Shown here: piece after piece, positions 2,882-41,252 of the stretch
Layout: each line of letters begins with the position of its first letter
Position numbering within the stretch: the stretch's first letter is position 1
Assembly: GCA_030527285.1 (NCBI GenBank)
Contig: JAUNBC010000007.1
Span: forward strand, 13,335 to 77,334
Length of the DNA stretch: 64,000 nucleotides
Direction: 5' to 3'
From: Bacillota bacterium
GTDB lineage: Bacteria > Bacillota > Dehalobacteriia > UBA4068
The notes under the pieces: generated by a model
Seen by the model: only the letters and a program-made list of their open reading frames with translations
The model's database searches: none
What the model was told of the DNA's origin: nothing
Position numbers and translations under genes: made by a program

Positions 2882-3233
2882 TATCAAAGCCCCTTCGGGG
2901 CTTTGATATGGAGTACGACCGGTGGTGTCCAAGCTGCGGTTTTGCGCAGCAAAAGCCAGCTTCAGACCATCACCCGCTCTACCTCTGAAGCTCTAAAGAG
3001 GCTTTGATATGGAGTGCGACCGGTAGTGTCCAAGCTGCGGTTTTGCGCAGCAAAAGCCAGCTTCAGACCATCACCCGTTCTACCTCTAAATCTCTAAAGA
3101 GGCTTTGATATGGAGTACGATCGGTAGTGTCTGAGCTGCGGTTTTGCGCAGCAAAAGCCAGCTTCAGACCATCACCCGCTCTACCTCTGAAGCTCTAAAG
3201 AGGCTTTGATATGGAGTATGATCTGAATACTAT
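2867..3233 (+). repeat. Tandem array of 3.6 x ~101-bp units. Each unit is a tRNA-Gly 3' fragment, a small hairpin and a 39-nt bulged palindrome.
   Basis: CCATCACCCGCTC occurs at 2867, 2967, 3068 (one C>T) and 3169. Palindrome cores are at 2928-2966, 3029-3067 and 3130-3168. The array ends at the tRNA-Arg 5' end. Confidence 0.9.
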
Positions 3234-12390: not shown

Positions 12391-12635
12391 TAATTAAAAC
12401 CGCCCTTGGGGGCGGTTTTAATTATGACTGGATCAGGAGTGCCTGAGCTGCGGCTCTGCGAAGCAAAGGCCAGCTTCAGGCCAACTAACCCCACCAGAAC
12501 ACAAGGCCGCCTGCAAAGGCGGTCTTGTGTTTTACTATAATCAGGAGTGCCTGAGCTGCGACTCTGCGAAGCAAAGGCCAGCTTCAGGCCAACTAACCCC
12601 ACCATAATTAAAACCGCCCTTGGGGGCGGTTTTTC
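12375..12635 (+). repeat. tRNA-Val-linked units: 16-nt tRNA 3' fragment, terminator hairpin and 39-nt bulged palindrome, 2.3 copies
   Basis: CCAACTAACCCCACCA at 12375, 12481 and 12589. Cores at 12442-12480 and 12550-12588. Hairpin A at 12391-12424 and 12605-12635; hairpin B at 12497-12532. Confidence 0.9.
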
Positions 12636-16796: not shown

Positions 16797-16857
16797 TTGA
16801 CAAATCGTGCGCCGCCTATTATACTAATCTCAGAATATATATGTAAGTATATATTCT
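16797..16857 (+). promoter_or_regulatory. Consensus promoter with a perfect 10-6-10 inverted repeat operator or leader hairpin
   Basis: TTGACA (16797-16802), 17 nt, TATACT (16820-16825), then AGAATATATA-TGTAAG-TATATATTCT (16832-16857). Confidence 0.5.
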
Positions 16858-16892
16858 CACGAAAAGAGAATAGAAGAGAGAGGAGAACGAAA

Positions 16893-17981
16893 ATGAAACA
16901 CAAGCTATTGATGCTGCTGCTCTGCCTGCTGCTCAGCCTGTGCCTGCTGGCCGCCTGCGCTCAGACGCAGGAACCGGCGGTTGACGAGCAGGAGCAGGAA
17001 CAGCCTGAGGCGACGACGCGCGAGCTCGTCGACATGGCTGGGCGCACCATCACCCTGCCATCAGAAGTGGCCACCGGTCTTGGCACCGGCGCCATCGGCA
17101 GCTACATGCTCTACACACTGGATCCGGACACCATGGTCGGCGTCAACTATGAGTTCAACGACCAGGAGAAGGCCTATATCCTCGAAGCCTACCATGACCT
17201 GCCCAGCTTTGGCCAGGGCGACGGCTTCAACCTTGAAGCCGTGGTGGCCGCCGCGCCGGATGTGCTGATCAACTACGGCTCCGTCAACGACGCCACCATC
17301 AGCTCGGCTGACGACATTCAGGCTCAGACCGGTATCCCCTGCGTGGTGCTGAACAGCGATATGGAAGAAACGGCAGCCGCCTACCGCATGCTGGGCGAGA
17401 TCTTCGGCATGCCGGAGCGGGCTGAGGAGCTGGCTGTCTATGCTGAAGAAGCCCTGGCCTTCGCGGAGTCCATCGATATCCCCGAAGAAGAACGGGTCAG
17501 CGTCTATTTCGGCAATGGACTGGAAAATCTGGAGACGGCGCCGGTCGGTTCCTGGCACGCTAGCCTGCTGGAGCTGGTTGACGCCATCAACGTGGCCGTG
17601 GTCGAAGGCGAGGTCACGAACCGTATCGACGTCAGCGCTGAGCAGGTCATCGGCTGGAATCCCGAGGTGGTGCTGCTCAACGGCGAACCGACGGAGGATC
17701 TCTCGCCTGTTCAGGCCGTGGAAGCCTTCCTGGCCGATGCGCGCTACCAGAACGTGCAGGCTGTGGTCAACGATCAGGTCTATGCCATCCCTAAATATCC
17801 CTACTCCTGGTTTGACCGTCCTCCCGGACCCAACCGCCTCATCGGCATCTATTGGCTGGCCGAGCTGCTGTATCCGGAGAATTTCGATCTGGATATCAAG
17901 GCTGAGGCGCGCGAATTCTACGCCCTTTATTATCATATGGAGCTCAGCGACGAGCAGCTCGTCGACCTGTTAGGCTACTGA
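16893..17981 (+). CDS. Periplasmic-binding-protein (class III, siderophore/B12-type) lipoprotein
   Basis: An internal ATG after GAGAGGAGAA gives MKHKLLMLLLCLLLSLCLLAAC (lipobox), followed by an acidic linker and a PBP fold. Confidence 0.8.
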   Translation: MKHKLLMLLLCLLLSLCLLAACAQTQEPAVDEQEQEQPEATTRELVDMAGRTITLPSEVATGLGTGAIGSYMLYTLDPDTMVGVNYEFNDQEKAYILEAYHDLPSFGQGDGFNLEAVVAAAPDVLINYGSVNDATISSADDIQAQTGIPCVVLNSDMEETAAAYRMLGEIFGMPERAEELAVYAEEALAFAESIDIPEEERVSVYFGNGLENLETAPVGSWHASLLELVDAINVAVVEGEVTNRIDVSAEQVIGWNPEVVLLNGEPTEDLSPVQAVEAFLADARYQNVQAVVNDQVYAIPKYPYSWFDRPPGPNRLIGIYWLAELLYPENFDLDIKAEAREFYALYYHMELSDEQLVDLLGY

Positions 17982-18070
17982 TCCCCGCTTGAAATAGCGG
18001 TAAAGGTGATTGCCCTTGTTACACACACTGGAGAATAACTGCGTCTTTTTTGCACGCACATGACGCAACA

Positions 18071-18100
18071 AAAAGCCATCCTTTGAGGATGGCTTTTTGC
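18071..18100. terminator. Bidirectional terminator hairpin
   Basis: AAAAAGCCATCC-TTTGA-GGATGGCTTTTT. Confidence 0.6.
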
Positions 18101-18117: not shown

Positions 18118-18278
18118 TCTGAGCTGCGGCTCGGCGAAGCAAAGGCCAGCTTCAGGCCAACTAACCCCACCAGAACACAAGGCCGCCTGCAAAGGCGGTC
18201 TTGTGTTTTACTATAATCAGGAGTGCCTGAGCTGCGGCTCTGCGAAGCAAAGGCCAACTTCAGGCCAACCAACCCCGC
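18118..18278 (+). repeat. Distal tRNA-Val-linked units: core, 16-nt fragment, hairpin B, core, degenerate fragment
   Basis: Cores at 18118-18156 and 18226-18264. CCAACTAACCCCACCA at 18157-18172. Hairpin B at 18173-18208. CCAACCAACCCCGC at 18265-18278. Confidence 0.9.
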
Positions 18279-18441: not shown

Positions 18442-19446
18442 CTAAACTCTGATCAGTTTGAGAATATTACCGGTTTTATGAAAATTCAGCGTTTGTATAT
18501 AAAGATTTCCTTGCTCATCGCCGCAGATCCCATGCGCCATCAAAGGAGAATTTTCATAACCAAGCTGCGATACGATATTCATATCCATATCAAGAATAGT
18601 AATACCGCCGTCCACCTCGCCAACGAAAACATTTTCTGTATTGGCCCAAATATCCGCTGGTTTATAAATCAAATCCTTTATCACGGCAAGTAGTTCGCCT
18701 GCGGTAGAAAAAACTTGTATACGGCTGTTTTCCCTATCTGCTAACCACAGGCGCTCCATCCTATCTATCCATAAACCATGGGGCAAACGAAACTCCCCAT
18801 CATTGTTTCCGGGATTGCCCCATGTCTTGGTCAACGTGCCGTCAGCGGAAAACTTGTGTATCGCGGCATTACCATAGCCATCGGCGGCAAAAAAATCTCC
18901 CGTTGATGATTCTATCATTTTAGCCGGTTGATTAAAGGGCGCTCCGGTACGCTTGATAGTTCTTAATCCATCAACTGGAGAAAAAGCAGCGTTAAAATGT
19001 ATGTCGTTCGGTATCCCATATTCCCTTTTGAGCCAAGAACAAACGTCCTGCTCATATCCGGTATCAGAAGGATGATTTATAACGCCAAAATCGCGCAGCA
19101 GTTGGCCATCAGCATCAATTTCACGCACGATATGCCGCTTTTTATCGGTACACAATACCGTGTTGCGCGGCGTAACAAATATTCCGTGCAAATCATCGCT
19201 AAACAAGCCTTGCCCCAAAGACTGCTGATAATTGCCGTTAGCATCAAAGACGATAATCGGATTGTTTATATCGCGAGTTGATACGTACAAATTGCCGCGG
19301 CAATCAAAACAGCCGGAGACTACCGTACTTTTTCTCAGATATTCGGGCCATTTCGCCCAGCCGCAATCCAATTTATAGGAGAAGCCCCTATTACTAAAAA
19401 CCACATCGGCTTCCGCCGTCCGGTATTTATTACCGTATATGTCCAT
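18442..19446 (-). CDS. NHL-repeat six-bladed beta-propeller, peptidyl-alpha-hydroxyglycine alpha-amidating lyase (PAL)-like
   Basis: 334 aa. The stretch GDFFAADGYGNAAIHKFSADGTLTKTWG..GEFRLPHGLWID..LWLADRENSRIQVF parallels, from my memory of rat PAL, GAVFVSDGYCNSRIVQFSPSGKFVTQWG..GQFSVPHSLAL..LCVADRENGRIQCF. Three HG motifs (H87, H223, H305), DGY191 and ADR238EN. Confidence 0.7.
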   Translation of the reverse strand: MDIYGNKYRTAEADVVFSNRGFSYKLDCGWAKWPEYLRKSTVVSGCFDCRGNLYVSTRDINNPIIVFDANGNYQQSLGQGLFSDDLHGIFVTPRNTVLCTDKKRHIVREIDADGQLLRDFGVINHPSDTGYEQDVCSWLKREYGIPNDIHFNAAFSPVDGLRTIKRTGAPFNQPAKMIESSTGDFFAADGYGNAAIHKFSADGTLTKTWGNPGNNDGEFRLPHGLWIDRMERLWLADRENSRIQVFSTAGELLAVIKDLIYKPADIWANTENVFVGEVDGGITILDMDMNIVSQLGYENSPLMAHGICGDEQGNLYIQTLNFHKTGNILKLIRV

Positions 19447-19617
19447 TCACGTGAACCTCCCGCTTGTTTTCACTAAAAAGAAAGGGCGACGCCTATCTGC
19501 GCCACCCTCCTTTTTAGCTCAGACGCCCTGTTCATCCATAATCTGTGCTTTTCTATCCTATGGAAAAAAGAGGGGACGTATTAAATCAATGAATTTCCGC
19601 AAAACCTTACGGCTAAA

Positions 19618-21015
19618 CTATGCTTTCCTGTTTGCCATATGGCTCCATACCGGCTTGCCCCAATGCTTTGTTCCGCTGGCCTCCGGATCGACCACGCCTT
19701 CATCCATTACTACTTTGCCTCTCAGGATAGTGTAATTAAGCTTGCATCCTAAAATGTCGTCATCGTAGATCTTGGTATTGGGTGTAAACTCACAACGCAT
19801 TTGATCGTGCAAATCAAAAATCACCAGATCGCCATCAGAGCCCGGTTGTATAACCCCTTTTTGCGGATAAATATTGAAGCATTTTGCGGGGTTCTCACAA
19901 CATAGCTGAACTACTCTCTCCAGCGTTATACCACGCTCTCCTTTAACTACTTCGTTTATCATCAGCGGCAACCGCAGGTTTATGCCTTGAAACCCTGATA
20001 TACCCAAGAAAATATTTTCGTTACCTCTTTCATTCTCTTCTCTTGTGTCGTCGCCATGATCGCTGCCGATCCAATCGACAGTTCCGTCTAAGACGTATTC
20101 CCATATGGCGTCGATAGTCTCCTGGTTTCGCAGAGGCGGGTTGCATTTTCCGTAAGCCTTATGCTTGACTACTTCTTCTTCTGTTTTGAGAAGATAATGC
20201 GGGCAAGTCTCCAAGAAAACTTTTTTGTTTTTAGCTTTGGCTTCTTTCGCCATTTGCATAGCTTCCGGCGTAGAGATATGAGCCAGAAGCAGGGCGCAAC
20301 CCGTTGCATCGGCAATCGTCATCAGCTTTTGCACTTCCAAGTATTCAGATATGGGCGGTCTGGACAAAGAATGATACTTTCCGTCCACCTTGCCCTCGCT
20401 GATAAACTTGTTTATCAAACTGCTGATTATATCATTGTTCTCCGCGTGCGAAGCCAGCATTAAGCCTGTTTTGGCGATTTCCGTCATACCCACTAACACT
20501 TCATAATCTGTGGACATGGTCAAGCCAGTAAATTCTTTTTCCCTTCCCGGAAGCGGTTCATGCAAAAATGTCTTATATGCTATCGCGCCCGCCTCCGCTA
20601 AGTCAACGATATTTTCGGGAAACTCTCCGCCGGCAGCCCCATAAAACGCATAGTCTACAACGCTACCGCGCTCTTCAACAACTTTAAACCTGTTCAAAAA
20701 GATATCTTTATTATACGGCGGAGGCGAGGAAACCGGATGCTCAAGAATGGTGGTCGTGCCGCCTCTTGCCGCCAACATCGATTCCGAATCCCATTTAGCC
20801 CGTCCCGGAATGGTGGGATCACGAAAATGGACATGGGGATCGATACCGCCAGGGATAACATATTTACCTTCGGCATCGATCGTTTTCTCCGCTTTCGGTA
20901 AACAACCCGGCTCCGTGATCATCGCAAATTTTTCGTCTTTGATGCCAATGTCGACTTTCTTAAATACTCCGCCAACATATGCCGTACCATTAATGACCGC
21001 AAGATCTAATTCCAT
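19618..21015 (-). CDS. Cyclic amidohydrolase (allantoinase/hydantoinase/dihydropyrimidinase family)
   Basis: 465 aa. Metal ligands in family order: HVHFRD, AYKTF (carbamylated Lys), ASHAE, LAHIS, GSDHG. Confidence 0.8.
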   Translation of the reverse strand: MELDLAVINGTAYVGGVFKKVDIGIKDEKFAMITEPGCLPKAEKTIDAEGKYVIPGGIDPHVHFRDPTIPGRAKWDSESMLAARGGTTTILEHPVSSPPPYNKDIFLNRFKVVEERGSVVDYAFYGAAGGEFPENIVDLAEAGAIAYKTFLHEPLPGREKEFTGLTMSTDYEVLVGMTEIAKTGLMLASHAENNDIISSLINKFISEGKVDGKYHSLSRPPISEYLEVQKLMTIADATGCALLLAHISTPEAMQMAKEAKAKNKKVFLETCPHYLLKTEEEVVKHKAYGKCNPPLRNQETIDAIWEYVLDGTVDWIGSDHGDDTREENERGNENIFLGISGFQGINLRLPLMINEVVKGERGITLERVVQLCCENPAKCFNIYPQKGVIQPGSDGDLVIFDLHDQMRCEFTPNTKIYDDDILGCKLNYTILRGKVVMDEGVVDPEASGTKHWGKPVWSHMANRKA

Positions 21016-21057: not shown

Positions 21058-22092
21058 CTATTCCGCATTTAATAGATTAACGTATATCTCATACACTTCG
21101 GGGTCAACATTTTCTTCGATCAACGGCCAAGTGGTTTTTGCCAGATCAGCAAAAGCCTGTCTTTGTTCCTCCGTCAGATCAACAAAGATGATGCCTGCTT
21201 CTTCAAGTAATTCTCTGCTTTCCACCAAGCCCGCATCGGCAAATTCCCTTGACCAGTCAAACGCGACAGCGGCGGCTTCGTTCAGCAGCTGTTGAATATC
21301 CGCCGGCAAAGAATTCCAGAATTCCAGATTGATGATAATCGGGCAGGTAAGATGAATATGACTCGTCATGGTCACGTACTTTTGCTGCTCATAATACTTG
21401 TCGAAATAAATCGATTGCAGCGGATTTTCCTGAGCGTCAACAATCCCTTGCTGCAAAGCCACATAAATCTCACTTCCGGGTATCGGCGTCGGGTTGGCGC
21501 CCATAGCCTGCCAGGCCGCTATATGATACTTATTATCCATCGTTCTAAGAGTTAAGCCGTTCAAATCCTCCGGAGTTTCGATCATTATATTTGAGGACAA
21601 TTCTCTAAAATGCCCGTCAGTAATGCCCATCAACTTAATTCCAGCCGCCTCGTATTTCTCGTTGAGGATGGCTAACAATTCCGGATCAGCGATAACTTCT
21701 CTGGCATGTTCAGCGCTCTTATAAGCAAACGCCATGTCAAAGATCGCCAGATCGGGAATGAAGTTAGCCTGCGCCGCGGCAGTACCCACATGCATGGTAA
21801 CGCTGCCAGTCTGAAGCCCCTCGATGATCTCTCTTTCCGAGCCAAGCTGAGCGTTAGGATATACGCTGACTACAACCCGACCATCGGCATGCTCATCAAT
21901 GTATTCCTTAAACTTGATGCAATACTGCGAAACTGTTGTTTCCTCGGCGCTGCCGGTTGCTAAAATCATTTCATATACGGTCGCATCATCTACAACCGCC
22001 TCACCGCTGTCAGCGGGATCGTCTGTGGCGCAAGCTGCAAATACTAACGCGACCAAGACTAAAGCAAATAATAAGCCAATCATTTTTTTCAT
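21058..22092 (-). CDS. dctP: TRAP transporter substrate-binding protein (DctP family), lipoprotein
   Basis: Start MKKMIGLLFALVLVALVFAAC after GGAAGGTG, followed by a DctP-type fold. Track start 22113 is an alternative. Confidence 0.8.
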   Translation of the reverse strand: MKKMIGLLFALVLVALVFAACATDDPADSGEAVVDDATVYEMILATGSAEETTVSQYCIKFKEYIDEHADGRVVVSVYPNAQLGSEREIIEGLQTGSVTMHVGTAAAQANFIPDLAIFDMAFAYKSAEHAREVIADPELLAILNEKYEAAGIKLMGITDGHFRELSSNIMIETPEDLNGLTLRTMDNKYHIAAWQAMGANPTPIPGSEIYVALQQGIVDAQENPLQSIYFDKYYEQQKYVTMTSHIHLTCPIIINLEFWNSLPADIQQLLNEAAAVAFDWSREFADAGLVESRELLEEAGIIFVDLTEEQRQAFADLAKTTWPLIEENVDPEVYEIYVNLLNAE

Positions 22093-22333
22093 TTTTTTCA
22101 CCTTCCCATACATTATTTTTTGATATTCAATACCGTTTTGCGCTTATGCTTCATCGAATAATCATTTTTCATACCTCCCAGCAAAAATTATTATCCAAAA
22201 TACATCCAGTACCATATAGAATATACGTTCGTTGCAAGCATCAGTTATCTACTTAACAACAACTTTTAACCTGTATCATTATTGCGCACGCTGCGAGGAT
22301 TACACTCAGCGTCTAAGCGCCCCTGACGAGAAA

Positions 22334-23623
22334 TCATTTGAGCAGCACTAAGCTTAATTCCGGAATAAATGTTACGATCAGCAACGCCACAATAAATGAA
22401 ATAATAGCCGGTACAGCTTTTTTGGCAATAGACAGCACCGGTACGTCGCTTATCCTGCTTGCCACAAATAAGTTAGCGCCAATGGGCGGTGTAATGAAGC
22501 CTATGGCAAAAGTAATTACCATTACGACGCCAAAGTGAATCGGGTCTATACCTACTGCGTTTACTATTGGCATACAGATCGGCGCAAGGATCATGATCGC
22601 AACCAGGCCATCCATAAGCATACCCACAATCGTGCAGAAGCCAATGAGTATTAAGAACACTCCAACCGGCGTTGATACCATAGACAGCAAAGTTTCTGTT
22701 AATTGCTGCGGCACCTGCATCAAGGTAAGCACTCTCCCGAAAACCAGTCCCGCAGACATTATCACCATTAACGGACCAATAGAGCATATGGAGTCTTTAG
22801 TAACTCGAATAATGTCCTTGATACTTAACGAACGATAAATAAAGCATCCAACTATCAGAGCATAAACAACTGAAACGTCTGCTGCTTCTGTAGGAGTGAC
22901 GATGCCGCCATAAATACCGCCAAGGATTATTACCGGTGATAATAGCGCCCAAAAACTGTTCTTGAACAGCTGCCAGAAGCTCATCTTTCGTAATTCAACG
23001 TAGTTCTCCAGCAGTTTTTCTTTATCTTCGCCCTTTTTCTTGCAATAGTAATAGGCGTACAGCATCATGCACAAACCCATGATTATGCCCGGAATAATAC
23101 CGGCAATAAACAGGTCGCCCACAGACTCCCCTGTCGCAACACCAAAAACGATAAACGGAATGCTTGGGGGAATGATTACCCCCAAAGAACCAGCGACGGC
23201 TACAATGGCAACTACCCAATTCTTTTCGTACCCGAAATTGACCAAAATCGGGATTGTCATAACGCCGACCGCCGCTACTGTAGCCCCTGCGGAACCACAG
23301 ATAGCGCCATAAAACAAACAGGTGGCAATGATCGCTATCGGCAACCCGCCTGTTTTATTACCGGCAAAATATGCAATAAAATCGAATATCTTTTTTGATA
23401 TACCGCTGGCTGCCATCAGGTTTCCGGATAAAACAAAAAGCGGTATTGCAAGCAAGGTGAACGAATCGATACCTGTTATCATACTGCGGAAAACATATAC
23501 GGCGTCAGCTGCAAATGACGGCAGCACCATAGACGGAACCAGCGAAGATAAGGCTATCGAAATACCAATAGGTACTCCCACCAGTAAAGTAATCAAAAAA
23601 ACCGCAAACACATATGCTGTCAC
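22334..23623 (-). CDS. dctM: TRAP transporter large permease (DctM)
   Basis: 429 aa, about 12 TM segments, typical DctM composition. Start abuts the dctQ stop. Confidence 0.85.
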   Translation of the reverse strand: MTAYVFAVFLITLLVGVPIGISIALSSLVPSMVLPSFAADAVYVFRSMITGIDSFTLLAIPLFVLSGNLMAASGISKKIFDFIAYFAGNKTGGLPIAIIATCLFYGAICGSAGATVAAVGVMTIPILVNFGYEKNWVVAIVAVAGSLGVIIPPSIPFIVFGVATGESVGDLFIAGIIPGIIMGLCMMLYAYYYCKKKGEDKEKLLENYVELRKMSFWQLFKNSFWALLSPVIILGGIYGGIVTPTEAADVSVVYALIVGCFIYRSLSIKDIIRVTKDSICSIGPLMVIMSAGLVFGRVLTLMQVPQQLTETLLSMVSTPVGVFLILIGFCTIVGMLMDGLVAIMILAPICMPIVNAVGIDPIHFGVVMVITFAIGFITPPIGANLFVASRISDVPVLSIAKKAVPAIISFIVALLIVTFIPELSLVLLK

Positions 23624-24111
23624 TAATCCGCCCTCCTTTGACTAAATCTATAAAGCTTTTTAATATATTTCTCAATAAATCTGACTAAAGAAAAGAAAAT
23701 CCCCACCAGAAAAGACAAATATACTAAATACATGGGAATACTGAGGGCGGCGCTGGTTTGATTGCTGTTGATTAGATAATTTATCACTTCTATTCCCGGC
23801 TTTATCATATATACGATAAAAACGACAAATAAGATATCGCCAAATATTAATAAGAATTTTTTTGTTTTCGGGAAAAAAGACTCTACTAAATCCAGCCGGA
23901 TGTGAGTGTTGTTATTGATCCCGTAGCTAAGCGCCAAAAAAGAAAACCAAATGAAAATGTATCTCGACAGTTCGTCAGACCAAGATAAAGATGAATGGAA
24001 AACATACCTCATTATGACAGATATGCCCATGATCAATACTATTGCCCATAAGGCGCTGCCCATAATTATCCCTTCAAAATTATCGTCAATCCATTTTAAG
24101 GCTTTTTTCAT
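23623..24111 (-). CDS. dctQ: TRAP transporter small permease (DctQ)
   Basis: Internal start MKKALKWIDDNFEG after AGGAGGAGAAAA. Four TM segments, about 162 aa. Confidence 0.75.
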   Translation of the reverse strand: MKKALKWIDDNFEGIIMGSALWAIVLIMGISVIMRYVFHSSLSWSDELSRYIFIWFSFLALSYGINNNTHIRLDLVESFFPKTKKFLLIFGDILFVVFIVYMIKPGIEVINYLINSNQTSAALSIPMYLVYLSFLVGIFFSLVRFIEKYIKKLYRFSQRRAD

Positions 24112-24193
24112 TTTTCTCCTCCTGTGCTCAGATCCTGTACTCAGATAATAGCCGCCATTATACAATCAGCACGAGAAATAATTCTGGGGTCCA

Positions 24194-25393
24194 TCAAATA
24201 TCCGCTTCATCGATCCTGATAATAGTTTCCAATAATAAATCAGTTCCTATCTTGATATCTTCCATTGCCGAAAACTCTTCAGGACTATGGCTGACGCCAT
24301 TCTTACTGGGCACAAATATCATTACCGTAGGCACATGCAAGCCAAATTCCTTCGCGTCATGCCCTGCGGAGCTGCCCATGGTTTTATATTTCTGGCCATT
24401 TTCTTTGCATATGCTCTCTACTATGTCTACTAAACGCTCATCCATGGCCACGGCCGGTTTATAAACGTGCAGGTTGTAGCTGATCTTGCATCTGGTTTCT
24501 TTATTAGCTTCCTTCTGTACTTCGCAAATGAATTCTTCCATATTCTTTGAGCTAAAATCTCTAATCGAAAGAGATAATTCCACTCGTCCGGGAATAACAT
24601 TAGACGCATTTGGAAACACGTTTAATTCTCCCACCGTCCATACAAAAGGATGTGGATACTTTTTGGCTATCTCTTCAACTTTACATAGAAACTTGGCCGC
24701 GCACATGACCGCGTCTTTTCTTTTATTCATGGGCGTGCAGCCGGCATGATTGGCTTCGCCAATTATTGTAATATGGTACGTCATGATCCCAACTATGTTA
24801 TTCACAATACCCACCGGGATGCGCTCATCGTCGAGCACTTTCCCTTGCTCGATATGCAGCTCCAAAAAAGCCTTGATTTTGGAAGTATCTGCTCTCAACT
24901 CTAAAACGCGGGGATCAATGCCGAGCTTCTGTAATTCTAACAAAACCTCTTCCGTTTGGGTGTTCTCGCGGCCTAACAAAACCCTGCTGCTGAAGCACCC
25001 GCCTAATTCGGGTAGTTCTTCACAGTTTAAGGCAATTATTTCCAGAGGATGCCGCGTATAGTATGAATTATCATTCAACGTATTAAGACATTCCAACGCC
25101 GCTGCGACGCCTAAGTTGCCGTCAAAAATGCCGCCATTTACAACCGTGTCCAAATGTGAACCTAATACGATCGCCGGCAGATCGTTATTCTTACCCTCTC
25201 TTCTGCCGATTACATTTCCCAGTTCATCCATATGCACCGTCAGATTTGCGGCCTTCATCTGTTGTGCCAAGACTTCTGCGGCTTGATAGTATTCTTTACT
25301 CCAGGCAACTCTGGTAATACCGCCATGCTCGTTTTTGCCGATATTACCTACTGCGTAAAGATTTTTTTCTAATCTAAAAATATTGGTCTCCAT
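24194..25393 (-). CDS. M20-family amidase, allantoate amidohydrolase/N-carbamoyl-amino-acid hydrolase type
   Basis: Start METNIF after AGGAGG. GGITRVAWSKEY..VLGSHLDTVVNGGIFDGNLGV is typical of the AllC/AmaB (hydantoinase/carbamoylase) family. Confidence 0.8.
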   Translation of the reverse strand: METNIFRLEKNLYAVGNIGKNEHGGITRVAWSKEYYQAAEVLAQQMKAANLTVHMDELGNVIGRREGKNNDLPAIVLGSHLDTVVNGGIFDGNLGVAAALECLNTLNDNSYYTRHPLEIIALNCEELPELGGCFSSRVLLGRENTQTEEVLLELQKLGIDPRVLELRADTSKIKAFLELHIEQGKVLDDERIPVGIVNNIVGIMTYHITIIGEANHAGCTPMNKRKDAVMCAAKFLCKVEEIAKKYPHPFVWTVGELNVFPNASNVIPGRVELSLSIRDFSSKNMEEFICEVQKEANKETRCKISYNLHVYKPAVAMDERLVDIVESICKENGQKYKTMGSSAGHDAKEFGLHVPTVMIFVPSKNGVSHSPEEFSAMEDIKIGTDLLLETIIRIDEADI

Positions 25394-25530
25394 TTTTCCT
25401 CCTGCTTTCACGGTATGAATGCGCCATCTTTATTTCGAACACAAACCCGGCAGCAATGAAAGAGCAAATAATTATCTTGGTTATTGACGCCTCAGACAAA
25501 CTATCGAATTAAAGACTCCAAATGCCATTA

Positions 25531-26550
25531 TCATATTTTATATATCCAACCTGCGGGCGCTTCGATATCACCTGTTTGAATACCAAACAGGGTATCATAC
25601 AGCTTGGTAATCACAGGGCCGGCCTCTGTTTCGCTATAAAACACATGCGGATTGCCTCGATACTCCAAACGACCGATAGGAGTTGCAAGCTTAGCCGTTC
25701 CGCATATGCCCGCCTCCGCCAATTGGTCAATTTTATCAATATAAATGTCCGTTTCAAGCGCTTCCATCGCACAATAATCGCGTGCAACTTGCATCAATGA
25801 CATTTTTGTTATACCGGGTAGTATCGACGGCGAGTATGGCGTTACAAACTTGTTGTCCTTGGTAACGCCAAAGAAATTGGCTCCGCCGGCTTCATCAATT
25901 TTTGTATGAGTAACCGGGTCGAGAAACAGGCAACCGGCAAACCCCCTACTCGCAGCCTCAGCATTAGCCTGCAAGCTGGCTGCGTAATTACCGCCGACCT
26001 TTATAGCGCCCGTACCATGCGCAGCCGCCCGATCCTGTTCGGTTACTATATAATTCACGGGACGCAATTTATCTTTATACCCCGACCCGACAGGCAGCAC
26101 AAATATAGAAAAGATATACTCCGACGCAGGTTTAGAACCTATATTATCGCCAATGCCAATAATATAAGGACGCAAATATAAGGTCGCCCCGGAACCATAA
26201 GGGGGGATCCATGCTTCATTCGCCCTTACAACCTGTGCGCAAGCTTCGATGAACTTCTCTGTCGCAACAGTCGGCATTAAAAGCTTTTCGCAGCCTCGCT
26301 GCATACGCTTTGCGTTTTCATCTGGCCGGAATAATTGTATGCCGCCATCTTGTGTGCTATAAGCTTTAAGGCCTTCGAAGCATTCCTGCGCATAATGCAA
26401 ACAGGTCGATCCTTCGCTGATAGTAATTTTATTGTCCTCGACAAGCTGGCCGTCATCCCAGCGGCCGTTTCGCCAATATGAAATATATCTCTTATCTGTT
26501 TTGATATAGCTAAAACCCAATTCCGACCAATCAATGTCTTTTTTTTGCAT
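25531..26550 (-). CDS. ilvE: Branched-chain-amino-acid aminotransferase (fold type IV, long form)
   Basis: 339 aa. Contains CFEGLKAY, YLRPYIIG, GGNYAAS and GITK, which match class-IV BCAT motifs. Confidence 0.8.
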   Translation of the reverse strand: MQKKDIDWSELGFSYIKTDKRYISYWRNGRWDDGQLVEDNKITISEGSTCLHYAQECFEGLKAYSTQDGGIQLFRPDENAKRMQRGCEKLLMPTVATEKFIEACAQVVRANEAWIPPYGSGATLYLRPYIIGIGDNIGSKPASEYIFSIFVLPVGSGYKDKLRPVNYIVTEQDRAAAHGTGAIKVGGNYAASLQANAEAASRGFAGCLFLDPVTHTKIDEAGGANFFGVTKDNKFVTPYSPSILPGITKMSLMQVARDYCAMEALETDIYIDKIDQLAEAGICGTAKLATPIGRLEYRGNPHVFYSETEAGPVITKLYDTLFGIQTGDIEAPAGWIYKI

Positions 26551-26603: not shown

Positions 26604-27791
26604 TTAACGGCCGTTATAAACAGCCAAAGCCGCTTCAATACCTTGTCCCACGGAAACCTTGAATTTCTGATCTAACAAAGCATCGCTCAAGGCTGCTAAT
26701 AACTGTATAACGTTGTTCCTTTTTGATGATTCTCCCATCAGGCCAACTCTCCATGCCTTGCCCTTGAAATCTCCAAGCCCTCCGCCGATTTCAATGCCGT
26801 ATTTGGTCAGCAAAAAGCTCCGTACCAAAGCATCGTTGACTCCATCGGGAATATTGACCGCGTTTAAGGTAGGCAGCCGGTGTTCTTTATTTTTAACCGT
26901 CATGCTGAGGCCCATTGCCTCGATGCCGGCAACAAAAGCGTCGGAATTCAACTGATGCCTGGCAAAGCGCGCCGTTAGCCCTTCTTCATACACCATCAGC
27001 AAAGCCTCTCTCAGTCCATAAACCATATTGATAGGCGCCGTATGATGATATAATCTCTCCTGGCCCCAATAATTCTTAATCATATTTAGATCAAAATACC
27101 AACTGCTGACTTTAGTTTTTCTATTGCCGATAACCTCCACTGCCTTATCGTTAAAAGTTACTGGAGATAAACCGGGCGGGCAACTCAGAGCCTTCTGCGT
27201 ACCGCTATAACAAGCGTCTATACCCCATTCATCAATTTTTAACTCCACGCCGCCTAAAGAAGTAACCGCATCAACAACAAACAGAGCATTATACTCTTTA
27301 GCGATTTCCGATATCTTCTCCAAGGGCTGTTTAACGCCGGTAGAAGTTTCCGCATGAACAATAGCGACCAATTTGATATCCTTATGCGCTTTAAAAGCCT
27401 CGCGTACTTTTTCCGGATCGATCGCTTCACCCATACTCGCTTCCACGCTAACGACCTTTGCGCCAAACCGCCCGGCCGCATCTCTAAGCCTTTCGCCAAA
27501 AACGCCACACACACAAATAATTACTTTATCCCCTGGTTCTATCAAATTGACCATTACCGTTTCCATACCGGCGCTTCCCGTTCCGGACATCGGTAAAGTC
27601 AGCGCATTTTTTGTTTGAAAAACATATCTTAACAATTCCATGCTTTCATTAGCAATTTCGAAAAAATTGGGATCTAAATGCCCATACAAAGGGTGAGACA
27701 TTGCGCTTAGAACCCGTGGCGATACTTCCACCGGCCCCGGCCCTAATAATAATCTATACTCGGATGATAATTGCGCGTACTGCTTTTTCAA
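26604..27791 (-). CDS. Class V aminotransferase (alanine/serine-glyoxylate, PucG-like)
   Basis: LLLGPGPVEV N-terminus and SGTQKAL (PLP Lys) motif. Best start is a TTG at 27791, 7 nt after GGAGGTG; the track ATG at 27824 is an alternative. Confidence 0.8.
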   Translation of the reverse strand: MKKQYAQLSSEYRLLLGPGPVEVSPRVLSAMSHPLYGHLDPNFFEIANESMELLRYVFQTKNALTLPMSGTGSAGMETVMVNLIEPGDKVIICVCGVFGERLRDAAGRFGAKVVSVEASMGEAIDPEKVREAFKAHKDIKLVAIVHAETSTGVKQPLEKISEIAKEYNALFVVDAVTSLGGVELKIDEWGIDACYSGTQKALSCPPGLSPVTFNDKAVEVIGNRKTKVSSWYFDLNMIKNYWGQERLYHHTAPINMVYGLREALLMVYEEGLTARFARHQLNSDAFVAGIEAMGLSMTVKNKEHRLPTLNAVNIPDGVNDALVRSFLLTKYGIEIGGGLGDFKGKAWRVGLMGESSKRNNVIQLLAALSDALLDQKFKVSVGQGIEAALAVYNGR

Positions 27792-28046
27792 AAGAAACAC
27801 CTCCAAAATAGACGATTTAATCATAGTAAATATACATTTACTGTTATTAAATTATCTATTTCTTCATCTTTGCAAATTCTCCTTCTTTTTCTCAACATTT
27901 TTTGTATTGTGTTTGCCAGTAAGAAAATTACGCGATTGGCACGAAAGCTAAGCGTGTATCAGCATGATCATATATACCTTTTTATTCCGATAGCGTCGGT
28001 TACGCCAATAAACAGTTCACGCTTTGCTCAGCCGGCATTACGCCAT

Positions 28047-28210: not shown

Positions 28211-29008
28211 CTAAATCTGCTTATTTATATAACCTAACCTATGCGATAACTCATTTGTCGTATCAATGACATTACTTATTATATTATGCAGATCTTTTTC
28301 CACTAATCTTGAAGTGGGGCCGGCAATACTAATAGCGGCGATAACTTCGCAATTGCAATCAAAAACAGGGGCGGCGACACAAGTAACGCCGACTTCACGC
28401 TCTTCATTATCTAAAGCATAGCCCTTTTTAATTATTGACGCAAACTCTTTTTTTAGATCCTCAGCGGTTACCAGAGTGTTCTTGGTATACTTTTCCATCG
28501 TTGTAGCGCCAATTATATAATCCTGCACCTTTTCCGGTTTGTATGACAGCATAACCTTTCCCGCCCCGGTGCAATAAAATGGAACCCTGGCTCCTAATTG
28601 AGTGAACAGTTTTAGAAGATTACTGCTTTCCGCCTGCGCAATATACACGATATGATTCCCGTCCAATACCGACAAGTTACAAGTCTCGTCAAGCTTATTT
28701 CTCAATTCTTCTAAATATGTCTGCGCAATACTTGCAACAGTACTCTGCTTTTTGGCCATACTGCTAATCTTGAATAATCCAAAACCTATTCTGTATTTCT
28801 TTGTTTTACTATCTTGATCAATAAAACTGGATTGATGCAACGTATTAAGTAAATGATAAGTTGCGCTAACTTTATAATTAAGCTTATTACTGATCTCCGT
28901 GACTCCCAAACCATGCTCCGACTCGGCAAGTACAGTTAGTATTTCCGTTGCCTTTTGCACAGAAGATACGATTTTAGTGCTTTTTATATTCACGGATTTG
29001 TTTGACAT
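28211..29008 (-). CDS. IclR-family transcriptional regulator
   Basis: 265 aa. N-terminal wHTH (VQKATEILTVLAESEHGLGVTEISNKL) and a C-terminal IclR effector domain (CVAAPVFD..AAISIAGP). Confidence 0.85.
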   Translation of the reverse strand: MSNKSVNIKSTKIVSSVQKATEILTVLAESEHGLGVTEISNKLNYKVSATYHLLNTLHQSSFIDQDSKTKKYRIGFGLFKISSMAKKQSTVASIAQTYLEELRNKLDETCNLSVLDGNHIVYIAQAESSNLLKLFTQLGARVPFYCTGAGKVMLSYKPEKVQDYIIGATTMEKYTKNTLVTAEDLKKEFASIIKKGYALDNEEREVGVTCVAAPVFDCNCEVIAAISIAGPTSRLVEKDLHNIISNVIDTTNELSHRLGYINKQI

Positions 29009-29673: not shown

Positions 29674-30084
29674 TTACTGAATACCTCCGCCGCTCAGGTT
29701 GTAGAGATCGGTAATATCTTCTCCTGCTTCATTATAAAGAATGATACTGTCTCTATCCACATGGTCATCCTCAACGCGATCATCTATTTTTGTATAGCAC
29801 AGGAAATGGTCTCTTGCGCTTCCGTTCTCTAACTCATAGGTCCGGCCGTCAATCATAACCTCAATTTTGCGGATCTGAGCAGGCATATCCCGACCACCAA
29901 ACAGAAAATACTTTTCGCCGTCATTTTCAATGATACCGTCTAAAAAATTCCCATCACCATAGCCAAGGTGAGTAATCCTATACCGTCCGGTCAGGCCTTT
30001 CTCCAATGTCACAGTCCCTAACTGTTCTCCGATTTCAAGCAGATAGTATGCATGCCTTCCGATGCCAACGCCGCCATACAGCAT
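29674..30084 (-). CDS. Hypothetical protein, possibly 5'-truncated
   Basis: 136-aa ORF. The reading frame stays open for 29 further codons upstream (..VTVFAPAPEHIAEHYKQARNVEASPEI-M) with no ATG/GTG/TTG and no SD before the ATG. Confidence 0.35.
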   Translation of the reverse strand: MLYGGVGIGRHAYYLLEIGEQLGTVTLEKGLTGRYRITHLGYGDGNFLDGIIENDGEKYFLFGGRDMPAQIRKIEVMIDGRTYELENGSARDHFLCYTKIDDRVEDDHVDRDSIILYNEAGEDITDLYNLSGGGIQ

Positions 30085-30190
30085 AATTTCAGGAGATGCT
30101 TCAACATTACGCGCCTGCTTGTAATGCTCTGCGATGTGTTCCGGCGCAGGAGCGAAAACCGTGACGATTAATTAATAAAAAAGCGGAACA

Positions 30191-31336
30191 TCACATAGTC
30201 TCTCTATTAGAAGATGTCGGAATCTGCTCACAGTATTCCGCGCAGCACGCGTCAATGTCTAACTCTTTCTCTGTATTAAATGCTCCATTATCGTCATAGG
30301 AAATTATTATATCTTCATCAAGATCTACGCTTTTGCCGAGAATATCGTTGATTCGATCAAAGATATATAGCACCTCATCTTTGTAATTTTCCCCATCATT
30401 ATATTTTTCGAGCACAGTACGCACACAACTATGCTTATTAATGCACTTCATGTATTTGTCGCTCGTTTCGTTTGTATAATTATCTGGATCTGAACAATAA
30501 GTAGCTATTTCATCCTTTATCATTTCGACAGCTAATTGAACACTTTTATCATCTGTAATAATCGTATGAGTTGTAAACTGCATAATACCCAAGGACATTT
30601 TCTGCTTTTTTATCTTGAGTTTATATATTGCCCATATCCTTTCGCATAATCTTGTTGCGTTTGGGCGGCAATAATCCTCATAAATCATAATAGCATAGAC
30701 CAATGGATAGTAAAAATCGTATTTATTATCAGGGATGATATAGTTATCATATTTTTGAGACAGGCGGTGATACTTGTTCTTTATATATGCCAACTTTCTA
30801 TTTCGTGATTTTTCTTCATCGGTAATTATCTTTTGGTCAATGTTGGTCTTCAGCAGTTCATACACAAAAAATATTACAATTAACCATAGTTCCGTTTTTA
30901 TATCTTCCCAACTCACCCAGATATTAACGGAAGACGCTATTAAGGCGTTGTAAATAATACAAGCCAAGGCGCTGCCGATAATTGCAACTGTTATTTCACT
31001 TTTTATGTTTACGAGTTCTTTTCTTCGAAGAATATAAAAAATGTAGAACCATCGAAAAACATAATACCAAATTACCATTAAAAAAATGAGGTGAGGGGTT
31101 GTTTGGAACTTAACATTATAGATGTTGGCTAAAATTAGCATATATATGCTTGGCAAAAACACTCTCAGCCTGATGTTTAAGCCAAACGAAACTGATTCAG
31201 TATCCGCAAAAGAAAAGATTGCATACTCCATTCTGCTAATACCGCACTCTCGCATGTTTTTCCCCAATGCGTTAATCAGAAAAAAAAGAATTATGCCTTC
31301 CCAAAAATACGAAAAATATAAAATCGATAATGCCAT
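30191..31336 (-). CDS. Membrane protein with a C-terminal SLT-like (lytic transglycosylase) motif set
   Basis: 381 aa. The N-terminal ~170 aa has about 5 TM helices. The C-domain carries IMIYEDY.., SLGIMQF and EKYNDGENY, resembling SLT motifs ES / GLMQ / AYNxG. About 35% GC in a sampled line. Confidence 0.45.
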   Translation of the reverse strand: MALSILYFSYFWEGIILFFLINALGKNMRECGISRMEYAIFSFADTESVSFGLNIRLRVFLPSIYMLILANIYNVKFQTTPHLIFLMVIWYYVFRWFYIFYILRRKELVNIKSEITVAIIGSALACIIYNALIASSVNIWVSWEDIKTELWLIVIFFVYELLKTNIDQKIITDEEKSRNRKLAYIKNKYHRLSQKYDNYIIPDNKYDFYYPLVYAIMIYEDYCRPNATRLCERIWAIYKLKIKKQKMSLGIMQFTTHTIITDDKSVQLAVEMIKDEIATYCSDPDNYTNETSDKYMKCINKHSCVRTVLEKYNDGENYKDEVLYIFDRINDILGKSVDLDEDIIISYDDNGAFNTEKELDIDACCAEYCEQIPTSSNRETM

Positions 31337-36937: not shown

Positions 36938-39006
36938 ATGGAAAAAGACAAAAAGCCCGCTCTACCGCAGCCCGTCAGCTTTGACGAGTTTGCACCGACC
37001 TCGTATGACGCGTGGAAGGAAGAAGCGACGGCCAGTCTCAAGGGCGCTCCCTTTGAGAAAAAGCTGCTCTCCAAGACCTATGAGGGCATCGTCTTGCAGC
37101 CGCTGTACACCAAGGATGACGCCGAGTCCTTTGCCCAGAAGAACAGCTTCCCCGGCGCGATGGATTATCTGCGCGGCGTTAAGGCCGGCGGCTACCTGCA
37201 GCAGCCGTGGGTGATCGCCCAAGGCAGCGACGCGGTATTACCGGCGGAGGCTAATCAGCTGTTCCTCCAGGAGCTGCAAGCCGGCGGTAACGGTATCAGC
37301 TTTGACGCTGAGAATGGCCTGTATCTGGAGAATATCGACGATATGCAGGCTCTGCTCAAGGATATCTGCCTCAAGGTCAGCCAGCCAAACGTTTTCTGCG
37401 GCGCTTCCGCCGCCGCCTTCCTCGGCCTGCTGCAGACGCGCAATGAGCAAAACGGCTATCCGCTGGACGGCATCGTTGGCGCCGCCGGCGCCGACCCGAT
37501 CGGCGTTTACGCCCGCGACGGCAAGCTTGACGCTTCGCTGGACAATTATTTTGAGCAAATGGCTGCCTGCCTGCGCTGGGCCTCCAAGAACACGCCGCAG
37601 CTCAAGACCATCTACATTCAGGGCTCCGTTTATCATAATGCCGGCGCCAACGCCGTTCAAGAGATCGCCGCCGCCATGACCACGGCCATCGCCTATATCG
37701 ACGCGCTGCAGCAGCGCGGCTTCGCTATCGACGAGATCGCCAAGGCCATCCGCTTCGAGTTCTCGATCGGCGCTAACTTCTTCATGGAGATCGCCAAGCT
37801 GCGCGCCGTCCGCGTGATCTGGGCGCAGTTGATCAAAGCCTACGGCGGCTCCGCCGAGGCGGCCAAGATCGACGTCGCCGCCCGCACCTCCGCCTTCACC
37901 GCCACCGTCTACGACCCCTACGTCAACATTCTCCGCACGACCACGCAGGCTTTCTCCGGCGTTGTCGGCGGCGTGAACGCCATGAACGTCGCGCCCTTCG
38001 ACGCGGCGGTGCGCAAGTCGGACGAGCTGTCGCGCCGTGTGGCCCGCAATATCCAGATCATGATGCAGGAGGAGTTCAATCTGCTTTCGCCGGTGGATCC
38101 GGCGGGCGGCTCCTATTACATCGAGACGCTGACCGGTCAATTGGCCGAAGCCGCGTGGAAGCAATTGCAGGACATCGAAGCCAAGGGCGGCATCATCGCC
38201 GCGCTCGCCGACGGCAGCCTGCAAGACGCTGTCGCCGCCGTACTGGCCGACCGCTTCAAGAAATTAGCCGTGCGCGCCGACAAGGCCGTCGGCTCCAATA
38301 TGTATCCCAACACCGCCGAGCAGCCGCTGGACAAGCATTGCCGCCGCGAGGAGATCAAGCAGGCGCGCGCGCAAGCCGCCGCCGCCTTTGCCGGCAAACG
38401 CGATCAGGCCGCCGTCGATAAGGCGCTATCCGAGATAGACTGCTGCATCTGCACCGTCGCCGCCGCTTTTGCCGCCGGCGCTACCGTGGCCGAAGTCAAG
38501 GCCAAGCTCAATGCCGGTTCCGCCGCGCCGGTCAAAGCCATGCCGGCGCATCGCTGGACCGAGCAATTCGAGGCGCTGCGCGGCGCTACCGAAGCCGCCG
38601 TGGCTGCCGGTAAGCCGAATATCAAGGTCTTCCTCGCCAATATGGGGCCGATACCGCAGCATAAGGCGCGCGCCGATTTTGCCGCCGGCTTTATGGAGGT
38701 AGCCGCCTTCAAGGTGCTGAAAAACAACGGCTTCCCCACCGCCGACGAAGCGATCAAGGCCGCCTTGGACAGCAAGGCCGAGGTCGTGGTCATCTGCTCC
38801 ACCGACGATACCTACCCCGAGCTGGCTCCGGCCATCGCCAAGGGCGTCAAGGCCGCATCTCCGCAAACCAAGGTGCTGCTGGCCGGCGCTCCCGCCGCCG
38901 AGTACAAGGACGCCTATATCGCCGCCGGTATCGACGACTTCATCCATGTGAAGGCCGACTGCCTGAGCATACTTACCACTATCCAAAAAGAAAGGGGGTT
39001 ATGCTA

Positions 39007-39007: not shown

Positions 39008-41187
<2,180 letters not shown>

Positions 41188-41197
41188 AACAAAAGCT

Positions 41198-41229: not shown

Positions 41230-41252
41230 ATCAACATCAAACAGAGGACGAT

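Follow-up and report, generated by a model that had tools for sequence, protein, structure and literature searches.

A PAL-like propeller with a complete catalytic set beside a hydantoinase/carbamoylase-type operon is a candidate glyoxylate-releasing lyase

We examined a 64,000-nucleotide (nt) stretch of contig JAUNBC010000007.1 from the Bacillota bacterium assembly GCA_030527285.1 (positions 13,335 to 77,334; hereafter the window, 55.9% GC), in which the gene at 18442–19446 (−) encodes, by its open reading frame (ORF) and translation, a 334-amino-acid (aa) NHL propeller resembling the animal peptidyl-alpha-hydroxyglycine alpha-amidating lyase (PAL). The ORF begins with an ATG codon and carries the Shine–Dalgarno sequence GGGAGG 8 nt 5′ of the start. 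The protein has no signal peptide and its N-terminus contains no hydrophobic segment (maximum Kyte–Doolittle (KD) value 0.22 in the first 45 aa), and we therefore consider it cytoplasmic. On the same strand and 5′ of this gene lie eight genes, encoding an IclR-family regulator, two aminotransferases, an M20 amidase, the TRAP transporter proteins DctQ, DctM and DctP, and a cyclic amidohydrolase. A Pfam scan of the PAL-like protein returned one NHL repeat (PF01436, residues 219–246), with no match to SGL (PF08450) or to the AllA-type Ureidogly_lyase fold, and an NCBIfam scan gave nothing above threshold. An AlphaFold2 (AF2) model has six four-stranded blades, with a predicted local distance difference test score (pLDDT) of 92.6 and a predicted template modelling score (pTM) of 0.90.

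The first-pass annotation, made by eye from the sequence, had aligned this protein with the animal PAL core, and three alignments bear that out: addition to a 36-homologue alignment with MAFFT --add, comparison of the homologue profile with PAL in hhalign, and pairwise BLASTP. The rat PAL core used as query is identical to residues 7–329 of 3fvz_A, which are residues 498–820 of PAM in 5wm0, so that PAM numbering can be used. The 36-homologue profile matches PAL in hhalign with a probability of 99.6% (E 9e-24, 253 aligned columns), the protein itself matches rat PAL in BLASTP at 30% identity over 172 aa (E 8e-16), and all three alignments give one mapping of the core residues. Three histidines, H87 (motif DLHGI, codon 19186–19188 (−)), H223 (LPHGL, 18778–18780 (−)) and H305 (MAHGI, 18532–18534 (−)), align with the rat PAL Zn ligands H585 (LPHGL), H690 (VPHSL) and H786 (MPHDI), residue Y191 (ADGYGN, 18874–18876 (−)) aligns with the catalytic Y654 (SDGYCN), and R238 (ADRENSRIQVF, 18733–18735 (−)) aligns with R706 (ADRENGRIQCF), which contacts the substrate carboxylate. 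The pairings proposed earlier, of DGY191 with the PAL SDGY tyrosine, of LPH223GL and ADR238ENSRIQVF with VPHSL and ADRENGRIQCF, and of H87 and H305 with the other two Zn-binding histidines, hold in every alignment, and R58 and M303 further pair with rat R533 and M784. The roles of the PAL residues as Zn ligands, catalytic Tyr and carboxylate-binding Arg reportedly come from work by Chufan et al. in 2009. Across the family the five core residues are invariant in 36 of 36 homologues (35–63% identity), and among the homologues encoded at the loci fetched below the set is kept in 97–98 of 98 (H87 in 98, R238 and H305 in 97 each). The R58 equivalent is kept in 21 of the 36 close homologues and in 89 of the 98 locus-encoded ones. 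PAL D787, which we take to be a Ca2+ ligand, aligns with G306 of the window protein, a position that every one of the 36 close homologues fills with G, S or A, and the cysteines that form the disulfides of secreted PAL are not conserved in the family. Published descriptions of PAL present a six-bladed propeller with Zn and Ca ions, an alpha-hydroxyhippurate ligand and an active-site Arg, and describe human R703, the equivalent of R706, as an active-site substrate-binding residue (PMC10303134).

Structural comparison leads to the same family. In a Foldseek search of the Protein Data Bank (PDB), the PAL structure 3FVZ ranks second by E-value (7.5e-17, TM-score 0.69/0.70) and top both in query-normalised TM-score (0.69) and in identity (23%), and gluconolactonase 3DR2 is a weaker match. 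TRIM-NHL proteins outrank PAL in PDB sequence searches, whether run with the single sequence or with the profile, because one canonical repeat (residues ~199–256) matches each of their six blades in turn; the blades so matched mostly lack the His and Arg residues, and the TRIM-NHL rank is no evidence against PAL kinship. The likeness to PAL is confirmed, well beyond chance and beyond generic NHL resemblance. Alignment gaps and the AF2 model together delimit a two-helix insertion of ~35 aa at residues ~131–165 (18952–19056 (−)), with helices at 135–143 and 153–161 (pLDDT 71–88), that is found in a ~335-aa subgroup; neither rat PAL nor the bacterial homologues of ~300 aa have it. The window protein is a member of this ~335-aa subgroup, which is of Firmicutes/Synergistota type and combines an N-terminal extension with the helical insertion. 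The insertion may form an active-site lid that narrows the site to small substrates.

Comparison with animal PAL (EC 4.3.2.5, the lyase domain of PAM, represented by rat PALcc in 3FVZ/3FW0) defines both what is shared and what differs. The two proteins have the same six-bladed NHL propeller over ~250 co-linear columns, the same three Zn-ligand histidines, catalytic Tyr and carboxylate Arg, and equivalents of R533 and M784, and they presumably share the same alkoxide-collapse dealkylation chemistry. In contrast to animal PAL, the window protein is cytoplasmic, has no signal peptide, membrane anchor or PHM partner (no PHM-like domain is encoded in the operon or in the 64-kb window), has Gly in place of D787, carries the 35-aa helical insertion but no counterpart of the 536–556 loop, and is only 23–30% identical. 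Its gene lies in a catabolic operon, which points to a small metabolite rather than a peptide as substrate. With the fold and catalytic residues of PAL, and without its Ca site, secretory location or PHM partner, the protein is most fittingly seen as a PAL-family variant that is cytoplasmic and catabolic.

All eight upstream genes lie on the minus strand, beginning with the gene next to the PAL-like one (19618–21015), which encodes the 465-aa cyclic amidohydrolase of the hydantoinase/allantoinase/dihydroorotase superfamily (Amidohydro_1; below all NCBIfam cut-offs). It is followed upstream by the TRAP transporter genes for DctP (21058–22113), DctM (22334–23623) and DctQ (23623–24165), assigned by Pfam and NCBIfam; an M20 amidase of the hydantoinase/carbamoylase family (24194–25411, called start 25393; TIGR01879 and NF006771); a class-IV aminotransferase of branched-chain/ilvE type (25531–26550; NF009897 at 447 bits with a cut-off of 307, TIGR01123 at 403 with a cut-off of 250); a class-V aminotransferase of alanine-glyoxylate/ureidoglycine-glyoxylate (PucG) type (26604–27824, called start 27791; Pfam and PDB matches); and the IclR-family regulator (28211–29008; Pfam). 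The operon thus encodes ureide chemistry in its Amidohydro_1 enzyme and carbamoylase-family M20 enzyme, and a glyoxylate theme recurs in the class-V aminotransferase, which is nearest alanine-glyoxylate aminotransferase (AGT) and PucG, and in the regulator, whose closest NCBIfam models are BhcR (209 bits), KdgR (172) and AllR (149), all below cut-off.

The individual enzymes fit the ureide labels of the first-pass annotation to different degrees. The amidohydrolase, described there as allantoinase-like, does not carry that name well: allantoinase models are its top NCBIfam matches, at scores far under their cut-offs (NF004839 317 bits, cut-off 631; TIGR03178 288 bits, cut-off 358), and among solved structures it is nearer L-hydantoinase 1gkr (240 bits) than the Bacillus halodurans allantoinase (218) or E. 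coli AllB (169). It has S and G where AllB has N94 and S317, residues shared by the two solved allantoinases that we take to have a role in allantoinase, and its motif reads HPVS...GSDHGDD, comparable to GSDHGG in L-hydantoinase, where both allantoinases read MPLN...SDHSP. Its homologues at 54–69% identity are variously labelled allantoinase AllB, L-hydantoinase or dihydroorotase family, and some of those at 64% are AllB at NCBI. The M20 enzyme, described as allantoate-amidohydrolase-like, gives mixed scores for this label. It reaches 366 bits with TIGR01879 (hydantoinase/carbamoylase family, cut-off 204) and, at 414 bits, clears the cut-off of 399 set for the subfamily model NF006771 ('allantoate amidohydrolase'), but falls short of the AllC equivalog TIGR03176 (275 bits, cut-off 598) and is nearer L-N-carbamoylase 3n5f (260 bits) than AllC (203) or ureidoglycolate amidohydrolase (UAH, 168). 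The glyoxylate-type assignment of the class-V aminotransferase is upheld by its best PDB matches, Nostoc alanine-glyoxylate aminotransferase 1vjo (399 bits) and B. subtilis PucG 3isl (348), with Klebsiella ureidoglycine aminotransferase 3nnk at 303 bits. Among solved structures, PDB entries 4pc9, 4pak, 4pdh and 4nq8, which we take to bind the 2-hydroxy acids aldonate or pantoate, come closest to the TRAP binding protein, whose identity to any solved one is ≤ ~30%. Inferring a ligand from solved TRAP binding proteins was tried and set aside, both the window protein and its counterpart at a related locus (L099, described below) being ≤ ~30% identical to them.

A Pfam scan of the operon found no aldolase, dehydratase, kinase or dehydrogenase and no hydantoin racemase (Asp_Glu_race). 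The earlier statement that the operon has no recognisable cupin ureidoglycine hydrolase, AllA-type lyase or ureidoglycolate amidohydrolase proved correct: no cupin, AllA or second M20 gene lies in the operon or elsewhere in the 64-kb window, which also holds no urease, xanthine dehydrogenase, carbamate kinase or transcarbamoylase. The operon is a ureide operon only in the broad sense, a designation that is partly supported. Judged by sequence similarity, its nearest counterpart appears to be a Hyu-type system of hydantoinase and carbamoylase, extended by aminotransferases, and a canonical all or puc operon is the poorer comparison. The closest solved relatives of its two hydrolases are L-hydantoinase HyuH (1GKR) and L-N-carbamoylase (3N5F), at modest identities, and the window operon differs from Hyu-type systems in having no hydantoin racemase, a TRAP importer instead of a permease, and two aminotransferases and the PAL-like gene in addition. 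The Bacillus subtilis puc and Klebsiella hpx systems (PucH, PucF, PucG/HpxJ) comprise the same three enzyme classes, whereas in the window the amidohydrolase is sub-threshold for allantoinase and the xanthine dehydrogenase, uricase, permease and regulator genes of puc/hpx are missing.

We next considered whether the PAL-like gene belongs with the genes upstream of it. The 171-nt spacer between the amidohydrolase gene and the PAL-like gene folds with −54.2 kcal/mol (z = −3.25) and matches no Rfam family, riboswitches and leaders included. Sequence and folding identify within it a terminator-like hairpin at 19481–19510 (−), of 12 pairs (7 of them G–C), preceded by an A-tract and followed by a U-tract, that ends 35 nt before the PAL-like ATG. 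Because a gap of only 35 nt leaves no room for a promoter between hairpin and start codon, transcription of the PAL-like gene must either cross the hairpin or start at a promoter that overlaps the hairpin or lies upstream of it. Comparative evidence supports the link. The closest homologue (P0003, 63% identity) is the first gene on a 3.3-kb contig (L091), where it is divergent from an IclR gene (62% identity) and precedes the genes for a class-IV aminotransferase (73%) and an M20 enzyme (75%), in an order unlike that of the window. Since this contig keeps the gene set in another order, a classic hallmark of genes that work together, we consider the PAL-like gene functionally coupled to the operon, as proposed in the first-pass annotation, and the linkage looks real despite the hairpin. 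Homologues at 52–54% identity (L082 and L099) directly adjoin IclR and/or TRAP genes, with TRAP binding proteins only ~30% identical to that of the window; neither short contig, as far as examined (~4 kb for L099), contains an amidohydrolase or M20 gene.

On its 3′ side the PAL-like gene is separated from a convergent gene for a Peripla_BP_2 binding protein (16797–17981 (+)) by a bidirectional terminator at 18069–18099, recognised in the sequence as a perfect 14-nt inverted repeat with a 3-nt loop (CAAAAAGCCATCCT/AGGATGGCTTTTTG). A dispersed repeat of ~55 nt with the core GGCCTGAAGNTGGCCTTTGCTTCGC occurs at three intergenic sites (2944–3170, 12458–12590 and 18134–18266 (−)) as tandem pairs or triplets spaced 101–108 nt apart, giving 7 matches where 0 are expected and a REP/BIME-like look; one pair lies directly 3′ of the PAL-like stop codon. 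At the other end of the operon, 5′ of the IclR gene, two ORFs of 136 and 381 aa (29674–31336 (−)) have no Pfam match, and the 381-aa product also has no NCBIfam match. Elsewhere the window holds housekeeping genes and genes typical of anaerobes, among them those of the threonine pathway and those for FeoB, GatB, MoeA, SbcCD, methylmalonyl-CoA mutase and a glycyl-radical enzyme. In this part, 36938–45829 encodes both methylmalonyl-CoA mutase subunits (small and large) and MeaB, after which come the activase of a glycyl-radical enzyme and a PFL-like glycyl-radical enzyme, and these methylmalonyl-CoA mutase and glycyl-radical genes identify the host as an anaerobe, strict or facultative.

To place the window protein in its family, we surveyed bacterial relatives and their neighbourhoods. 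A word-indexed search with the PAL-like protein gave 1420 matches at E ≤ 1e-5, and species-representative genomes contain at least 566 confirmed PAL-like loci; bacteria encode hundreds to thousands of PAL-like proteins with a complete catalytic set. A larger count from a representative search (2052 at E ≤ 1e-30) was discarded as not PAL-specific because giant multi-NHL proteins dominate it, and a metagenome scan for close relatives returned only partial matches at 26–41% and no added context for the close subgroup. NCBI annotation gives the name 'peptidyl-alpha-hydroxyglycine alpha-amidating lyase family protein' to a number of homologues, P0109 and WIW50503.1 among them. The window protein is a member of this named family, being 26–40% identical to named examples and having the same invariant catalytic set, and is distinguished within it by a tie to carbamoylase-type genes that occurs in two loci only, the window and the contig of the closest homologue. 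In the open-access literature we found no characterised bacterial PAL-like enzyme and no propeller-type ureidoglycolate lyase.

Neighbourhoods were sampled in 80 distant genome loci (L002–L081, 10 kb around the PAL-like gene) and inspected at five loci of the subgroup at ≥50% identity and around individual homologues at lower identity. None of the 80 distant loci carries a homologue of the window amidohydrolase or M20 enzyme within 10 kb, and the individually inspected contexts likewise have no hydantoinase-like or M20-like gene, the contig of the closest homologue excepted. A Pfam census of 117 co-directional genes adjacent to PAL-like genes counted 10 luciferase-like monooxygenases, 10 SGL lactonases, 5 Ldh_2 proteins, 4 2-hydroxyacid dehydrogenases (2-Hacid_dh), 4 PAL-like paralogues, 3 HpcH/HpaI aldolases and 2 PF10282 lactonases; Amidohydro_1, M20 and cupin do not figure in the leading families. 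Among homologues at 39–48% identity, to which those of the Lachnospiraceae-type and Synergistaceae loci below also belong, one adjoins MR_MLE, 2-Hacid_dh and CoA-transferase genes, and another IclR, MFS and HapK genes near TRAP, Ldh_2 and Pantoate_transf. Plasmid copies at 27–31% adjoin an RraA-type aldolase, or a 2-hydroxyacid dehydrogenase with ectoine genes, or a Rieske/VanB/VOC set. Common neighbours family-wide are carboxylate importers, IclR/LysR regulators and enzymes of alpha-hydroxy and alpha-oxo acids, not ureide genes. The enrichment of Ldh_2, 2-Hacid_dh and HpcH aldolases is also in keeping with the glyoxylate theme of the window operon.

Several of these loci are organised clusters in their own right. 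In a Lachnospiraceae-type genome (L086, 7069–13230) a tight operon under a sigma-54 PrpR-type activator encodes CitMHS, DUF386, a PF10282 lactonase, the PAL-like protein, a metallo-beta-lactamase (MBL), an HpcH/HpaI aldolase and an RraA-like protein, which suggests a lactone or tricarboxylate pathway using the PAL-like enzyme. A metagenome-assembled genome (MAG) of Synergistaceae (L090, 8208–11020) has two tandem PAL-like paralogues (39–40% identity to the window protein), which are preceded by the genes of a TctCBA tricarboxylate transporter and followed by those for Dak1/Dak2 and a DHDPS-family aldolase. On the Mesorhizobium plasmid NZ_CP080526.1 (L102, 5656–14384) a PAL-family gene stands beside a divergent 2-hydroxyacid dehydrogenase gene and is flanked on its other side by a complete cluster for taking up and degrading ectoine and hydroxyectoine (ehuABCD, eutA, doeAB). 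A further cluster, found through the amidohydrolase, is that of Oscillospiraceae bacterium 44-34 (L104, 3417–12319), where a 65%-identical amidohydrolase homologue lies with an Asp_Glu_race-family racemase, an SSF symporter, an IclR regulator, a 35%-identical M20 enzyme and a TRZ/ATZ/SsnA-like deaminase, and with no PAL-like gene; this is a distinct hydantoin or ureide cluster that includes a racemase.

Starting from the observed fold, catalytic residues, family-wide conservation and gene linkage, we infer a metal, a chemistry, a substrate class, an order of steps and a product for the window enzyme. The interpretation we put forward, tentatively and at somewhat less than an even chance, is that the PAL-like protein acts within this operon as a glyoxylate-releasing C–N lyase of the PAL family, cytoplasmic and predicted to be Zn-dependent; this estimate includes the narrower case of a ureidoglycolate lyase weighed below. 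By homology to PAL, H87, H223 and H305 would hold Zn, and the metal would in turn bind an alpha-hydroxy carboxylate through its alpha-hydroxyl group. The substrate carboxylate would be bound by R238, and probably by R58 too, and Y191 would deprotonate the hydroxyl. As the alkoxide then turns into a carbonyl, the substituent carried by that carbon would be lost, yielding glyoxylate and an amide or urea. We expect this chemistry to be conserved because the Zn-His3/Tyr/Arg site is invariant, and its role here would be in small-molecule catabolism rather than peptide amidation. In the IclR-controlled, TRAP-fed operon, the hydantoinase-type enzyme would open a cyclic ureide, the M20 amidase would remove the carbamoyl group, the AGT/PucG-like class-V aminotransferase would aminate the released glyoxylate to glycine, and the class-IV aminotransferase may relay amino groups to glyoxylate or handle an amino-acid product. 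The simplest candidate substrate would be ureidoglycolate (N-carbamoyl-alpha-hydroxyglycine), one of several. The lyase step could come last, or first on a TRAP-imported alpha-hydroxy acid, and the minimal modules of PAL-like and TRAP genes at 52–54% identity hint at an early role.

The most specific alternative, put forward in the first-pass annotation, makes the operon an allantoin/allantoate pathway in which allantoinase and allantoate amidohydrolase lead to ureidoglycine, the PAL-like enzyme replaces AllA as a non-canonical (S)-ureidoglycolate urea-lyase, and the PucG-like aminotransferase uses the released glyoxylate. We rate this as improbable. Ureidoglycolate has exactly the PAL scaffold, that of an N-carbamoyl-alpha-hydroxyglycine, and the window offers the matches such a pathway would call for: a class-V aminotransferase close to PucG and to the Klebsiella ureidoglycine enzyme, an M20 protein above the 'allantoate amidohydrolase' cut-off, an amidohydrolase whose top models and some of whose 64% homologues are allantoinases, and no AllA, cupin or second M20 gene. 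The reaction proposed would be that of AllA (EC 4.3.2.3), to which the window protein has no sequence or fold kinship, and the substrate of AllA and of M20 ureidoglycolate amidohydrolase shares the alpha-hydroxyglycine scaffold. The ureide context is not conserved in the PAL-like family. Against the allantoin pathway stand the sub-threshold, hydantoinase-leaning amidohydrolase without the N94 and S317 equivalents, an M20 enzyme that resembles L-carbamoylase more than AllC, the presence of a TRAP importer and of an aminotransferase of branched-chain type, neither of which allantoin would lead one to expect, and the restriction of ureide-type neighbours to the closest homologue; moreover, the absence of allA covers the window, and a canonical allA may sit elsewhere in the genome. 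Co-occurrence with ureide genes had been set beforehand as a test of the ureidoglycolate proposal, and with 0 of 80 distant loci carrying hydantoinase or M20 genes and a census showing lactonases and hydroxy-acid enzymes, the result went against it. The ureidoglycolate hypothesis is weakened because homologues are not enriched near ureide genes, but members at 30–50% identity can differ in substrate, so that the neighbourhood test weakens this reading without killing it.

The same neighbourhoods lend weight to a different chemistry, in which the family acts on O- or C-linked substituents of alpha-hydroxy or alpha-oxo acids, for example in C2-hemiketal ring opening of 2-keto sugar acids, lactone hydrolysis or retro-aldol-like glyoxylate release, and in which a TRAP-imported hydroxy acid would here be processed before, or independently of, the hydantoinase and carbamoylase steps. 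We consider this unlikely, though a serious contender. The SGL, Ldh_2, 2-Hacid_dh, HpcH/HpaI and PF10282 counts of the census favour it, as do the clusters with lactonase, MBL, HpcH, RraA and DUF386, with MR_MLE, 2-Hacid_dh and CoA-transferase, with TctABC, Dak1/2 and DHDPS, and with an RraA-type aldolase, and so does the 52–54% group, whose tightest partner is a TRAP or IclR gene in the stretches described above. The PDB entries nearest to the window TRAP binding protein, if their ligands are indeed 2-hydroxy acids, would lean the same way. It is opposed by the closest homologue, which keeps M20, class-IV aminotransferase and IclR partners and not sugar-acid genes, by the absence from the window operon of aldolase, dehydratase, kinase and dehydrogenase genes and from the window protein of a Pfam SGL match, and by a PAL site known for C–N cleavage only. 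SMP-30/gluconolactonase (SGL) and other propeller lactonases, frequent neighbours of PAL-like genes, share the six blades and a central metal site, whereas the metal ligands and the Tyr/Arg pair of the window protein are of PAL type. Some of its homologues show faint precomputed SGL hits at most. A further possibility, that the PAL-like gene is an unrelated neighbour or encodes a non-catalytic NHL binding protein after the operon terminator, could draw on the strong hairpin at 19481–19510, on the frequency of NHL propellers as binding modules and on TRIM-NHL proteins as top sequence matches, yet it is very improbable given PAL catalytic residues invariant across >130 homologues, a linkage to the same operon genes that survives rearrangement, and the lack of promoter room before the start codon. 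As a main reading, a non-catalytic NHL protein was rejected because the catalytic residues are invariant.

Several observations also weigh against our own preference for a glyoxylate-releasing C–N lyase in this operon. The terminator-like hairpin stands between the amidohydrolase gene and the PAL-like gene; the many lactonase neighbours of relatives (SGL at 10 of 117, and PF10282) fit C–O as well as C–N chemistry; and the 65%-identical amidohydrolase homologue of the Oscillospiraceae genome sits in a cluster that neither keeps a PAL-like gene nor has AllA in its place. A TRAP system implies an imported carboxylate, a group that allantoin does not have. Nothing in the scheme requires the class-IV aminotransferase, and the open-access literature yielded no enzymology for any bacterial family member.

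To our knowledge, PAL has been described solely as the latter half of the enzyme that amidates peptides in animals and algae, and in the open-access literature we found no bacterial PAL-like protein with an assigned substrate. The family itself has already been named by NCBI, and the present locus is a lead into this large, uncharacterised group as the open-access literature presents it. The window and the contig of the closest homologue tie a PAL-like protein to ureide/carbamoyl chemistry, and the window ties it in addition to a glyoxylate-type aminotransferase, which makes ureidoglycolate and other N-carbamoyl or N-acyl alpha-hydroxyglycines testable substrates. At its most specific, and as a long shot, the PAL-like propeller would add to the urea-lyases of ureidoglycolate (or ureidoglycine) a third kind that is not homologous to the others. 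It would complete a non-canonical ureide pathway of anaerobes, whose other parts would be a ring-opener of hydantoinase type, an M20 enzyme of carbamoylase type and a PucG-like aminotransferase. Such an enzyme would also provide the first biochemical function for the large bacterial PAL-like family, and it would suggest that peptide amidation in animals took over an old catabolic lyase that released glyoxylate. If the C–N lyase assignment is wrong, the hydroxy-acid and lactone neighbourhoods of the relatives would shift attention to alpha-hydroxy-acid or sugar-acid chemistry. If it is right, it would provide a new enzyme type in the purine/ureide catabolism of anaerobes, and it would bear on the evolutionary origin of PAL.

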